Both the position numbers and the translations under genes were made by a program. A stretch of 39,497 nt of DNA, taken from the IMG/VR virus record IMGVR_UViG_2778261536_000006. One strand, 5' to 3'. Origin of the DNA: a virus (taxonomy: Duplodnaviria; Heunggongvirae; Uroviricota; Caudoviricetes). Below the pieces are notes generated by a model. It searched no databases. It saw only the letters and a list, made by a program, of their open reading frames with translations, and had not been told where the DNA came from. Positions 1 through 39,121 of the stretch are shown here, piece after piece. The stretch's first letter is position 1. Every line of letters starts with the position of its first letter.

Positions 1-573
1 ATGTTTTGCGAAGAAAAAGTAGCTCAAATGGCTGCATACCTACTTCTTAAGCGAGGTGGGCGCATGGCATATCTGAAATTGATGAAGTTGCTCTATCTGT
101 CTAACCGCCAGTCGATTTTGAAGCATGGCAGGATGATCGGCGAAGATAGCCTTTACTCTATGAAATTTGGACCAGTCATGTCGAATACGCTGAACTTGAT
201 TCGCGGTAAGGCTGAAGGCATTGGTGACTACTGGTACAACTTGATAGAGACGAACGGGCATAATGTATCGTTGCGTTCAGATCCGAGGGAAATGGATGCA
301 GACGAGGTCTTTGATGAATTGAGTCGTGCAGATATCCGGATTTTAGATGAAATCTATTCTCGGTATGGGCATATGAACCGATTTGATCTCGCAAATATGA
401 CGCATTTAGAAAGCGTTTGTCCAGAGTGGCACGATCCTGGCAATTCTCGTAAGCCTATAGACCTGAAAGAAATGCTGATCAGTGAGGGTAAAAGCGAGGA
501 TGAGGCTAATCGCATAATTGGCAAAATGGAAGAATCTCAGAAACTTAAGGAATTTTCTTTGCAATTATCATGA
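1..573 (+). CDS. Panacea-domain (DUF4065, SocA/GepA-like) phage-associated protein, putative antitoxin
   Basis: 190-aa ORF with LKLMKLLYL and GPV motifs that I recognise as Panacea-like; stop overlaps the next ORF start (ATGA). Confidence 0.5.
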   Translation: MFCEEKVAQMAAYLLLKRGGRMAYLKLMKLLYLSNRQSILKHGRMIGEDSLYSMKFGPVMSNTLNLIRGKAEGIGDYWYNLIETNGHNVSLRSDPREMDADEVFDELSRADIRILDEIYSRYGHMNRFDLANMTHLESVCPEWHDPGNSRKPIDLKEMLISEGKSEDEANRIIGKMEESQKLKEFSLQLS

Positions 574-989
574 CGGATTATCAGCCATACAGGAAAGGAA
601 CTGTGCTTGCCCCAACTGGGCCATGCAATCATCTTCATGTGATTTGTAATGATCCTGTTTATTACCCCGTTAACGATTGTTATTGTGTTTTAGTTGTTAA
701 TATTTCTAGTATCAAGGATGGTGTCCCCCACGATCCGTCTTGCGTCTTGAATTCTGGTGATCATCGCTTTATCAAGCATCCAAGTTATGTTGTTTACGCT
801 GAAGCTATAATTTGGCGAGTGGATAACATGGTTAGAAAGCAGCGATCGGGTGAGATTTCTGTTCATGATGATATGCCAGAAGCTACATTCAATAGAATTC
901 TGGACGGTTTTGATATCTCTGATGAAGTTACGCCAAAGAACCTTAAATTTAAAAATAAATATTGCGTATCATCTATTGATGATGAGTAA
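570..989 (+). CDS. Hypothetical protein, candidate toxin/effector partner of the Panacea-like gene
   Basis: 139-aa ORF whose ATG overlaps the upstream stop by 4 bp, implying translational coupling; no family recognised. Confidence 0.45.
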   Translation: MTDYQPYRKGTVLAPTGPCNHLHVICNDPVYYPVNDCYCVLVVNISSIKDGVPHDPSCVLNSGDHRFIKHPSYVVYAEAIIWRVDNMVRKQRSGEISVHDDMPEATFNRILDGFDISDEVTPKNLKFKNKYCVSSIDDE

Positions 990-1249: not shown

Positions 1250-1558
1250 TTAGTGATGTTCTTTGCCCTTCTGTTTGCTTGTTCTGACCTGTTCCCACTC
1301 GATACGTCCTTCTTCTCGTCTTTTGTCTATGTATTCCGCAAGATCCTGAATATTGATGCAACGTTTTGCTTTTTGCGATGTGCCGATGCGATATGTTGGA
1401 ACGGGCAACTTACAAGCGTTTGCTTTTGCTTCTGCCGTGGCTGGACTCATGCCAAAGTACTTTTGGCTAACTGCTGAGAGTTCAATGTTAGGGGTATTGA
1501 ATTCAGCCATCAGTAAAAACAAGGTGTTCATAATTTTCTCCATCAAAACCGGCTGCAC
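1250..1558 (-). CDS. PrtN-family (MerR-like HTH) DNA-binding protein, possible excisionase-like regulator
   Basis: 102-aa ORF, last gene of the leftward early operon; N-terminal MNTLFLLMAEF region resembles PrtN-type regulators; start codon uncertain (three in-frame Met). Confidence 0.45.
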   Translation of the reverse strand: MQPVLMEKIMNTLFLLMAEFNTPNIELSAVSQKYFGMSPATAEAKANACKLPVPTYRIGTSQKAKRCINIQDLAEYIDKRREEGRIEWEQVRTSKQKGKEHH

Positions 1559-35880: not shown

Positions 35881-36444
35881 ATGATTTACGGGTATGTTCG
35901 TGTATCAACAAATCATCAGGATACAGAGTTGCAACGTCTTGCACTTGAGTCAGCTGGCTGTGAGCGAATTTATGAAGAATATGCCAGTGGCAGAACAGCT
36001 AATCGCCCTGTGTTAAAGGAATTAATTACGGTGATGAAAAGTGGAGATGAGTTGATTGTCTGGAAGTTAGATCGGATAGGGAGAAATGTGCTGCATGCGC
36101 TATTGATGTTTCAAAATCTGCACGAAAAAGGTGTTAATTTTCGGAGTATTACAGATGGCGTAGACCTGAAAACAGCAAGTGGTCGCTATAATTTCCGTAA
36201 TATTCTTTCTGCTGCGCAGTATGAATCTGATTTGAATAGCGAGCGAACTTTAGCTGGTTTGGCTATTGCCAGATCCAAAGGCCGGATTGGTGGGCGTAGA
36301 CCGAAGTTTAGCGACGAGCAGTGGCAACAGATGGGAGCGCTCATAGCGGCAGGGAAATCACGGCGTTATGTTGCACGTATCTATAACGTTGGGCTATCAA
36401 CCCTATATAAACGATTTCCTGTTACTGGCATTCAAACGAAATAA
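35881..36444 (+). CDS. Serine DNA invertase (Gin/Pin/Hin/Cin family)
   Basis: 187 aa; N-terminal YGYVRVST with catalytic Ser, resolvase core, C-terminal HTH; adjacent to the invertible fibre segment. Confidence 0.85.
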   Translation: MIYGYVRVSTNHQDTELQRLALESAGCERIYEEYASGRTANRPVLKELITVMKSGDELIVWKLDRIGRNVLHALLMFQNLHEKGVNFRSITDGVDLKTASGRYNFRNILSAAQYESDLNSERTLAGLAIARSKGRIGGRRPKFSDEQWQQMGALIAAGKSRRYVARIYNVGLSTLYKRFPVTGIQTK

Positions 36445-36587
36445 TTTAAAAGCAATTTAAAGAGTTATTTGTCTAATGTTGGAAGCCGCAGCCACGTCGT
36501 ATGCAAGAACGTGCTGCGGCTGGCTGGCGAACTTTCGATAGTGCGAGTATTGAATGATTTCCAGCCGTTACCGATTTTACGTGTTAA

Positions 36588-36836
36588 TTAGTGAACAAAC
36601 CACTCGTCAGCAGATTCCCAGGTATCTTTCAGAGTCTCCTGAACAAAAGTTTTTGCAGAATCCTTATCTGCGGTGCGTGTAACAGAAAGGCCATCGTTGC
36701 TGGTGGCTTTTACGATCACCTCTACATCGTCATAACGTTTACTGATGCGTCGGGTTAATTCTTCCTTTAACGCATCCACAGCACCGGTTGGCATTTTAGT
36801 CATTTTTTCTTTGGCTATGCAGATTTCAATACGCAT
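36588..36836 (-). CDS. DinI-family protein
   Basis: 82 aa starting [11 protein letters not shown] with C-terminal [16 protein letters not shown], closely resembling DinI; two SOS boxes upstream. Confidence 0.75.
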
Positions 36837-36849
36837 AAAAGTCCCTCTA

Positions 36850-36901
36850 TACTGTGTTTGTATACAGTATTATTTTTAACTGTATAGATAAACAGTGTCA
36901 A
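36850..36901 (-). promoter_or_regulatory. Tandem LexA (SOS) boxes overlapping a promoter for the DinI-like gene
   Basis: TACTGTGTTTGTATACAGTA (36850-36869) and AACTGTATAGATAAACAGTG (36878-36897), both CTGT-N8-ACAG; minus-strand TTGACA at 36896-36901 with an A/T-rich -10 about 17 bp downstream. Confidence 0.7.
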
Positions 36902-37995
36902 GAGGCCTTATTTCTGCTCCTTTGGAGCTCTTCAAAACGATTATGTAAAGATTTCGGATACAGTTCGGTATATACCTGCCATAGCACGTTTAATGAACGA
37001 TGCCCTGTAACCTGGGCGACTTCCTCAATACTAAAACCAGCCTCAAATAAGCGACTTGCCCCTTCTCTACGCAAATCATGGTATCGCAGATCTTTAATAC
37101 CTAATTTGCTTCTTACCCTCTGGAATCCCGCAGTAACAGAAGTGCTGTTATATGGAAAAATGAATTCTGATTTTTTGGGTTGTCGTTGGACGATATCCCA
37201 GGCTTCCCCAAGCAAGGCTACTTTCATATGGTTGCCTTCCTTTTTACGTGGATCTTTCCTGTCTCTTACGAGTATGGATTTTTGTTCCTGATCGAGATCC
37301 TCCCATCGTAATCGGCATACTTCACCGATTCGCATACATGACCACACAGAAAATTTGAGGATATCAACGAACGGAATTTTTGAGCATTTATGTGTAGATC
37401 GTTGTTGAAGACCTTCAATGAGCATGTCCAGTTCATCAGATGCCGGTCTACGATTACGACGATTTGATTTACCAATTAAACCAAGTTTAAGTAGATATGG
37501 ACGAGCGGCTTTTGCTGGGTTTGATGTGTAATTAATTCCATATACAGGTTTGGCAGCATCCAGAACACTGCCAAGATAACTAACATCGTGGCTAACTGTA
37601 GCTGGACCTGCACCAGCGTTGTTTCTTAGCCTGCAATGTTCAATTACGTCATTTTCTGTCAGTTCAGATAGTTTGATCGCGGAGATGTCACTATCCATAA
37701 GCAGTTCCAGCACATATCTTTTAGTACGGCCTGCTTTACCTCCGGCATTTGGGTCATTTAAATATTTGTGTAGTAAGTCACGGACTGTAAGTCCGTCAAC
37801 TGCATTTGATGATGGAATGCCATATAGATCTAATTCCATCACTTTCTGTGTGCCCCATGTTTTGGCATGAGCATGTTTAGGGAATGTTTTACTTTCCCTG
37901 TAAGTGATAACACCTTTTTCTTTGATAATCACATTACAGCGATAGCGTGGTGTGCCATCGGATTTTAGTCGTTTCTCTATGTTATAGTACGCCAT
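36898..37995 (-). CDS. Tyrosine integrase (DusA-associated type)
   Basis: 365 aa with C-terminal tyrosine-recombinase motifs; start is 88 bp from the dusA start codon, transcribed divergently. Confidence 0.85.
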   Translation of the reverse strand: MAYYNIEKRLKSDGTPRYRCNVIIKEKGVITYRESKTFPKHAHAKTWGTQKVMELDLYGIPSSNAVDGLTVRDLLHKYLNDPNAGGKAGRTKRYVLELLMDSDISAIKLSELTENDVIEHCRLRNNAGAGPATVSHDVSYLGSVLDAAKPVYGINYTSNPAKAARPYLLKLGLIGKSNRRNRRPASDELDMLIEGLQQRSTHKCSKIPFVDILKFSVWSCMRIGEVCRLRWEDLDQEQKSILVRDRKDPRKKEGNHMKVALLGEAWDIVQRQPKKSEFIFPYNSTSVTAGFQRVRSKLGIKDLRYHDLRREGASRLFEAGFSIEEVAQVTGHRSLNVLWQVYTELYPKSLHNRFEELQRSRNKAS

Positions 37996-38013
37996 TACAC
38001 GACCTCGTTATTT

Positions 38014-38051
38014 CGGGTTCCCATAAAACGTGGGAACCTGTGCGGGAACCT
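38014..38051. promoter_or_regulatory. GGGAACC repeat cluster between integrase and dusA (possible arm-type/regulatory sites)
   Basis: GGGTTCCC (38016-38022, inverted) plus two direct GGGAACC copies (38032-38038, 38044-38050) in the int 5' region / attR zone. Confidence 0.35.
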
Positions 38052-38083
38052 AACGCGAGAAAAATAGCCTGAAATGTTCAAAA

Positions 38084-39121
38084 ATGCACGATAATCATGA
38101 AACACAAAAAATTAATCAAACCAGCGTGATGCCTGAAAAAACTGGTGTTTACTGGAATTCTCGGTTTAGCATTGCTCCTATGCTCGACTGGACGGACAGA
38201 CATTGCCGCTATTTCTTGCGTCTGCTTTCCCGCAATACGCTGCTGTATACCGAAATGGTGACCACAGGGGCGATTATTCACGGTAAAGGTGATTACCTGG
38301 CGTACAGTGAAGAAGAACATCCGGTAGCGTTGCAACTCGGCGGTAGCGATCCGGCGGCGCTGGCGCAGTGTGCGAAGCTGGCAGAAGCGCGCGGATATGA
38401 TGAGATCAACCTGAATGTCGGCTGCCCGTCTGACCGGGTGCAGAACGGCATGTTTGGTGCGTGTCTGATGGGTAATGCGCAGCTGGTTGCCGACTGCGTG
38501 AAAGCGATGCGCGATGTGGTGTCGATTCCGGTGACGGTGAAAACGCGTATTGGCATCGATGACCAGGACAGCTATGAATTTCTCTGCAATTTCATCAACA
38601 CCGTTTCCGGCAAAGGCGAGTGTGAGATGTTCATCATCCACGCACGTAAAGCCTGGCTTTCGGGGTTAAGTCCGAAAGAAAACCGTGAGATCCCGCCGCT
38701 CGATTATCCGCGTGTGTATCAACTGAAGCGTGACTTTCCGCATCTGACAATGTCGATTAACGGTGGTATCAAGTCGCTGGAAGAGGCCAAAGCACACCTG
38801 CAACATATGGATGGCGTGATGGTCGGGCGCGAGGCGTATCAGAATCCGGGTATTCTGGCGGCGGTAGACCGGGAGATCTTTGGTTCCTCGGATATCGATG
38901 CCGATCCGGTGGCGGTAGTGCGCGCCATGTATCCGTACATTGAGCGTGAACTCAGCCAGGGGACGTATCTCGGTCATATTACCCGGCATATGTTGGGCTT
39001 GTTCCAGGGTATTCCTGGCGCGCGGCAGTGGCGGCGTTATTTAAGTGAAAATGCCCATAAAGCGGGTGCAGACATTAATGTGCTGGAACACGCGCTCAAA
39101 CTGGTGGCGGATAAGCGTTAA
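38084..39121 (+). CDS. dusA: tRNA-dihydrouridine synthase A
   Basis: 345 aa, highly recognisable DusA sequence ([16 protein letters not shown]...[10 protein letters not shown]...), followed by pspG as in E. coli. Confidence 0.9.

Follow-up and report, generated by a model that had tools for sequence, protein, structure and literature searches.

The 39,497-nt Caudoviricetes record IMGVR_UViG_2778261536_000006 (hereafter the window, meaning this whole stretch of DNA) is E. coli DNA with pspG at its right end, and within positions 36,850 to 39,121 it carries an integrase gene (int) divergent from the tRNA-modification gene dusA. This region is very probably the integrase-proximal (right-hand) junction of a dusA-specific E. 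coli prophage, in which GGGAACC repeats between the two genes would be arm-type integrase sites (Table 1). The junction position, the origin of the dusA 5′ end and the architecture and conservation of the repeats rest on sequence comparison, while integration and excision, dusA expression and the requirement for the PrtN-family protein RdfN are experimental results from near-identical or related elements (PMC4482086, PMC6328086, PMC8409611). Integration into dusA with replacement of the gene start is an already-established phenomenon, to which the arm-site reading is a modest addition.

The dusA gene of the window was aligned with that of the unoccupied E. coli strain F467, as the preliminary description of the region had proposed, and the divergence was limited to nt 1–96. 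In this segment 17/96 nt differ; nt 97–587 are identical (0/491 nt differ), and over nt 97–1038 differences are found at 14/942 nt, the first at nt 588. The eight amino acids altered relative to the F467 allele all fall in DusA residues 3–26. Upstream of the dusA ATG, no similarity was found between the window and the unoccupied F467 site. An 8-bp core, ATGCTCGA, is identical in the int-proximal junction, the unoccupied site, the attachment site (attP) of the free phage mEp460 and the far junction of the relative SEC470. The longer TCGGTTTAGCRTTGCWCCWATGCTCGA, which includes this perfect core, is common to attL and attR, with attL taken from a relative. The suspicion that the first part of dusA is element-derived and that the junction lies within the gene thus holds, the junction being at the core (38180–38187). 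Identity of the dusA 5′ end with prophage-free strains, the outcome that would speak against it, was looked for and not found. In annotation the prophage boundary should be set inside dusA, not in intergenic DNA, with dusA codons 1–32 counted as phage DNA.

A 551-nt query comprising the int start, the spacer and part of dusA was compared with 5426 complete E. coli genomes. Its dusA part was matched in 5426/5426 genomes, the int and spacer part too in only 742, which puts the int-proximal arrangement in about one-seventh of complete E. coli genomes (742/5426). In the remaining genomes the match begins at window position 38081 (∼94–96% identity) or only at 38171.

The opposite end of the element was read in the close relatives SEC470 and M21816. 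SEC470 is 100% identical to the window over the 551-nt query, and the close relatives are 99.3–99.4% identical to it at the left end. The window starts at the ATG of a Panacea-domain gene; in SEC470 and M21816 the far-end att core precedes this ATG by 254 nt, so the far junction would be located just outside the window; this spacing agrees with the earlier statement that the left junction is not included. The search for a dusA 5′ fragment farther left, also suggested at the time, yielded one at the far end of both relatives. In SEC470 this piece of native dusA measures 105 nt, bears a pseudogene annotation and has phage DNA directly after it.

A prophage-type copy also sits in the parB gene of plasmid pEND_Eco18005 (NZ_CP126947.1; L002:6228-6240, L093:8800-8815). 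Its identity with the window extends to 38183, beyond which the two sequences are unrelated. Both parB junctions have only TGC in common with attP, so that strand exchange would have its left edge at 38180/38181–38183. To judge from these junctions, the plasmid insertion is a secondary integration site. Matches on plasmids were obtained at 8 places for the int/dusA′ query (dusA′, the element-borne dusA 5′ end) and at 57 for the left end. Plasmid carriage of this prophage type may not be rare.

Ordinary allelic variation, or homologous recombination without a prophage, would place the true junction in intergenic DNA, and more than one native dusA 5′ allele does exist in E. coli. This explanation is already refuted, however: the exact dusA 5′ segment accompanies int both in free phages and in the plasmid-borne copy, the divergence ends precisely at the core common to attL, attR, attP and attB, and a native dusA fragment is present at the far end of the prophage.

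The native dusA 5′ ends of E. coli are of two types, which diverge exactly at the att core and bear on window positions 38084–38187 (loci compared: L174, K-12 NC_000913.3 4261669-4261772; L003:1504-1607; L092:1186-1246). The short type is the displaced fragment of M21816 and matches the int-free dusA N-terminus in ∼70/80 Enterobacteriaceae species representatives, E. albertii and E. whittamii among them; this N-terminus is shorter than that of K-12 and unrelated to it. The long type is that of K-12 (MHGNSEMQ...HWSGRFSVAPMLD); it is 81–89% identical in nucleotides to the element-borne dusA′, with homology from 3 nt before the ATG, and in other genera it has an integrase upstream, or none in a few cases. 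In K-12, yjbL-yjbM occupy the position where the element would have been. Because the long type resembles the element-borne dusA′ and the short type matches the int-free Enterobacteriaceae, the K-12-type 5′ end is probably the fossil of an extinct element, and so is the N-terminal extension in the 345-aa annotation. No attL (far-junction) relic was found beside zur in K-12-type strains. A 13-mer upstream of the native dusA, similar to the int start read in reverse complement (TATGgTATAGTAC), was considered as a relic of a deleted integrase and discarded as not significant (E = 5). A 'prophage-free' reference dusA allele should not be assumed to be ancestral.

The integrase belongs to a described group. 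DusA-associated integrases (DAIs) were defined by Farrugia et al. 2015, whose list includes that of mEp460 (PMC4482086). The defining features of DAIs recur here: int adjoins the dusA 5′ end in divergent orientation; its product is a tyrosine recombinase with the R-H-R-H/Y residues, homologous to the listed DAIs; a semi-conserved att repeat (∼21 bp) occurs at both junctions in the APMLDW-coding region of dusA; and a replacement dusA 5′ end is accompanied by a native fragment displaced to the other end, the fragment being read in SEC470 and M21816. The window integrase (Int) matches Pfam Phage_integrase (E 1e-20), and its catalytic residues R222, H306, R309, H332, and Y342 show no variation among six integrases 35–69% identical to it. 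The full-length DusA protein matches Pfam Dus (E 3e-104).

The segment from int through the spacer and dusA′ up to the core shows 99.7% nucleotide identity with phage 1720a-02 (Phi-stx2dact, KF030445), 96–98% with mEp460, Lys8385Vzw, SKA5 and others, and 96.4–99.7% identity across 1720a-02, mEp460, Lys8385Vzw, SKA5, and phiSTEC1575-Stx2k. The free phage mEp460 carries int, spacer, dusA′, core and the other arm, and its Int is 98.1% identical in amino acids to that of the window. Phage 1720a-02 integrates 100 bp into dusA with a 7-bp core (Balasubramanian et al. 2019; PMC6328086); it carries an in-frame dusA′ open reading frame (ORF), and its attP is regenerated in vivo, as shown by sequencing (PMC6328086). 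DAI elements replace the dusA 5′ end, including β-strand 1 of the TIM barrel, and excise as circles, as detected by PCR in family members (PMC4482086). The PrtN-family protein RdfN is the excisionase required for excision of a dusA-specific element (Durand et al. 2021; PMC8409611). The statement in the preliminary description that such integrases insert into the 5′ end of dusA and supply a replacement coding segment matches this published biology (PMC4482086, PMC6328086, PMC8409611).

Although int, spacer and dusA′ are near-identical to those of the 1720a-02 group, the rest of the window prophage is a different mosaic, in which the tail module is contractile and Mu-like, a tail-fibre segment is probably invertible and the left end holds a Panacea-domain gene; cargo beside the second arm differs between relatives. 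No stx genes were found in the SEC470 prophage annotation or in the ORF list of the window. DAI islands and prophages share with the window an int divergent beside the dusA 5′ end, a PrtN homologue and att repeats at both ends (PMC4482086). IMEVchUSA3 and other dusA-specific SGI1-like Vibrio elements share the target and the use of an RdfN (PrtN family) excisionase, but they are mobilisable islands under AcaCD of IncC plasmids, whereas the window is a phage (PMC8409611). The comparison of Vibrio enzymes covered phage integrases, which are ∼52–56% identical to the window Int.

The distance of 88 bp given earlier between the int start and the dusA ATG (38084) proved exact, and the GGGAACC repeats reported for this spacer were located as three copies. 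The word GGGTTCCC at 38015–38022 corresponds to the minus-strand GGGAACC at 38016–38022. A repeat finder returned GGGAACCT twice at a distance of 12 nt and a perfect 8-nt inverted repeat, GGTTCCCA/TGGGAACC, with its arms 7 nt apart. The second arm was read from mEp460 and from the far junction in each of SEC470, M21816 and the plasmid copy; it carries GGGAGCC at +51 and GGGAACC at +62. Five GGGARCC sites thus lie at -164 (inverted), -148, -136, +51, and +62 from the core. Repeats that occur in both attP arms and are unlike the core in sequence are a feature of lambda-type, arm-site-dependent integrases, the second arm here being that of the relatives.

It is very improbable that the repeats are there by chance or are non-functional remnants of duplication. 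The heptamer is short, and over the whole 39.5-kb window it shows no global enrichment (8 copies versus 4.5 expected, a number reached in 10/100 shuffles). Against this, three copies fall within 35 nt, far beyond chance at a background of ∼0.004 copies per 35 nt, and more lie in the second arm. The exact heptamer occurs four times in the 352-nt attP, and any 7-mer reached 4 copies in only 2–6/500 dinucleotide shuffles. A repeat statistic allowing one mismatch per 7-mer was uninformative, being dominated by AT-rich words, and exact 7-mers were used instead. In relatives with 83–89% identical Int, the three sites are invariant, site 1 within the invariant block GGTTCCCAT, while sites 1 and 2 are separated by a freely varying spacer. 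In the second arm, conservation among relatives with differing cargo stops 1 nt past the outer site.

The same geometry, with other motifs, is found in phages whose Int is only 35–69% identical to that of the window. The comparison was made on intact attP regions of phage genomes, with positions counted from the core. Yersinia YeP1 (Int 69% identical) carries GGGGTGCT at -164 (inverted), -148, -136, +50, and +61, and Marinobacter AS1 (35%) carries GGAGCAC at -189, -167 (inverted), -148, -137, +71, and +82. Repeats are distributed over both arms in Burkholderia BcepIL02 (36%; seven copies of GTAGCA) and Pseudomonas JBD90 (35%; four copies of GTAGCAA). Repeat signals in NK-7, RHph, and L072 were weak or partial, and these three were left out as support except for the site positions of L072, which has an inverted site at -162 and repeats at -148 and -136/-137 with a motif of its own. 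No lineage motif occurs in the attP of an unrelated lineage. Four motif groups (GGGRNCC, GGGGTGC, GGTGTAC, and GGTGTCC) were distinguished in the int-side arm of Enterobacterales prophages, each always with one inverted and two direct copies.

Two IMG/VR contigs (L075 and L088) encode integrases of the same family (54–66% identical). At ∼350 nt upstream of int, repeats of the GGGGTGC type are present in both arms, with no dusA′ segment between the arm repeats. Their integrases apparently target another gene yet keep the arm-site module.

The motif appears to follow the N-terminus of the integrase. The predicted layout of the window Int comprises an N-terminal arm-binding-like domain, a core-binding domain (71–171) and a catalytic domain (186–364). 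An AlphaFold2 (AF2) model gives the N-terminal domain three strands and a helix, with a match to the AP2 fold; when the Int sequence was compared with solved structures, the catalytic domain alone was matched. Residues of the three N-domain strands differ among the motif groups. Pairs of integrases with the same motif have a mean identity of 81% in the N-domain and 76% elsewhere, compared with 63% and 72%, respectively, for pairs with different motifs. The clearest case is a pair, L064 and L066, that is on sequence a natural mosaic. Their Ints are 100% identical over residues 39–175 and 97% over residues 176–350 but only 63% over residues 1–38, and their repeats are GGGGTGC and GGTGTCC, respectively. 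L064 and L060 have the same motif and are 89% identical over residues 1–38, the other Int domains being only 62–78% identical.

These comparisons suggest that the repeats are probably arm-type integrase sites and that DAIs act as lambda-like heterobivalent enzymes. With somewhat less assurance, it is likely that DAIs share five arm sites at fixed positions and that specificity resides in an exchangeable module formed by Int residues 1–38 and the adjacent repeats. The arm-site specificities of this likely module would include GGGAACC, GGGGTGC, GGTGTAC, GGTGTCC, GGAGCAC, and GTAGCAA. Of the two roles offered in the preliminary description, arm-type or regulatory, the comparative evidence favours the first and disfavours binding by a regulator.

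It is unlikely that another protein, either the RdfN/PrtN excisionase or a regulator of divergent int/dusA′ promoters, binds the GGGAACC repeats. Such a role would fit the location of the repeats, which take up the larger part of the 88 nt between the divergent genes, the place where promoters must be, and the inverted GGGAACC pair with its 7-nt gap, a typical operator layout; RdfN-family proteins are moreover DNA-binding and ubiquitous in dusA elements. It is disfavoured because the same motif lies beyond the core in the other arm, at distances conserved in several lineages, a pattern of integrase arm sites and not of an operator, and because the motif tracks Int residues 1–38 even where the rest of Int is identical. 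As is established for lambda Xis, a directionality factor normally binds in just one arm. If Int bound at these sites also autoregulated its own gene, this would be compatible with their being arm-type sites.

Several points weigh against the arm-site reading. The window itself is without the far junction and the second arm, both of which are read from close relatives only. Because the repeats directly adjoin the 5′ end of int, plain linkage could explain the L064/L066 co-swap, which would also favour binding by another protein. Pfam gave no significant arm-binding-domain match for the window Int. The exact consensus of integration host factor (IHF) is absent from the window-type attP, and a consensus promoter scan found no sigma-70-like site within the 88-nt spacer and none for dusA′. 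To our knowledge, Rci uses no arm sites. It is Rci to which the DAIs have been placed closest (PMC4482086). In YeP1, L075, and L088, the interval separating the core from the second-arm sites does contain an exact IHF consensus. By eye, a one-mismatch IHF candidate can be seen in the window-type attP.

No promoter was assigned in the spacer because the consensus scan was empty there, and an Rfam scan of 36500–38500 gave no match. The A-rich block between site 3 and the dusA′ ATG is a candidate promoter region for dusA′ and/or int. Segments of this block are invariant in the alignment of relatives with 83–89% identical Int, and GATAAAGAAAAAATAC from it recurs across other Enterobacterales lineages.

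In the mechanism that we propose, the DAI would recombine phage attP with a chromosomal site in dusA codons 33–35, at the core. The int-side phage arm carries a copy of the first 96 nt of a dusA, presumably with a promoter, and the junction therefore rebuilds a full-length, in-frame dusA with eight altered N-terminal residues, leaving the native dusA 5′ fragment stranded at the far prophage end, just left of the window. The three GGGAACC copies in the spacer would be three of five arm-type sites, the others being GGGAGCC and GGGAACC in the opposite arm. The N-terminal sheet-plus-helix domain of Int would bind the arm sites while the core-binding and catalytic domains hold the core, in a lambda-like intasome on an attP of ∼235–255 bp. 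We infer both the binding of Int to the repeats and the location of the promoter. The int-side arm would thus have three roles, as intasome scaffold, as promoter region and as the first 32 codons of a host gene. Excision would need the PrtN/RdfN-family protein encoded at 1250–1558, likely the recombination directionality factor (excisionase) of the element, and would restore the native dusA; the excised attP would read ...CTCCTATGCTCGATAGGATG....

Lambda Int is a heterobivalent integrase, and the lambda attP contains the arm-type sites P1, P2, and P′1–3 together with IHF and Xis sites. Like that system, the window Int is predicted to have three domains with an N-terminal sheet-plus-helix domain, core-unlike repeats lie in both arms (∼-164 to -136 and +51 to +62) of an attP of ∼240 bp, and there is a separate directionality factor, here of the PrtN family and not Xis. 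Unlike lambda, the N-domain has no detectable sequence similarity, the window-type attP lacks an exact IHF consensus, and the int-side arm doubles as host-gene coding sequence and promoter. No description of arm-type sites for dusA elements or the DAI family was found in the literature searched; Farrugia et al. 2015 describe neither arm-type sites nor an N-terminal DNA-binding domain, and the word 'arm' is absent from their text (PMC4482086). The arm-site map suggests a minimal attP of ∼235–255 bp and a specificity module, which would be useful for integrase tools and for predicting cross-reacting elements.

Table 1. Features of the window (distances of sites are counted from the att core; strand '.', none assigned).
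Feature	Position	Strand	Remarks
SocA/Panacea-domain antitoxin-like gene	1-573		Pfam E 2e-19
Overlapping ORF after the Panacea gene	570-989		no Pfam match
PrtN/RdfN-family gene	1250-1558	-	Pfam PyocinActivator PF11112 E 4e-23; relatives annotate 1250-1531
Imperfect inverted repeat, 25 nt	33923-33947 and 35790-35814		76% complementary
Gin/Hin-type serine invertase	35881-36444		Pfam Resolvase E 3e-36; adjoins the repeat-bracketed segment
DinI-like gene	36588-36836	-	Pfam E 1e-19; directly downstream of int
DAI tyrosine integrase (int)	36898-37995	-	ORF, 365 aa
int codons 1-58	37822-37995	-	predicted three-stranded β-sheet + helix; candidate arm-site-binding domain
Spacer between int and dusA start codons	37996-38083		88 nt exactly
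Candidate arm-type site 1, GGGAACC inverted	38016-38022	-	-164 from core
Candidate arm-type site 2, GGGAACC	38032-38038	+	-148
Candidate arm-type site 3, GGGAACC	38044-38050	+	-136
A-rich conserved block between site 3 and dusA′ ATG	38057-38083	.	GAGAAAAATA...AAATGT...AAAA
dusA	38084-39121	+	ORF, 345 aa
Replacement dusA 5′ end (dusA′), element-derived	38084-38179	+	codons 1-32
att core ATGCTCGA	38180-38187	+	dusA nt 97-104; crossover region of the int-proximal junction
Rest of dusA, host-derived	38188-39121	+

Elsewhere in the prophage, the Panacea-domain gene and the ORF overlapping it may act together in toxin-antitoxin fashion or in defence. The cargo at this left end varies among relatives. 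The segment between the two copies of the 25-nt imperfect inverted repeat, adjoining the serine invertase gene, is probably an invertible host-range segment; the ∼1.9 kb bracketed by the repeats contain opposed tail-fibre and tail-fibre-assembly genes. Minus-strand promoter-like hexamers were seen near the DinI-like gene at 36901–36872 and 36829–36802, and the order of int and the DinI-like gene is also that of mEp460.

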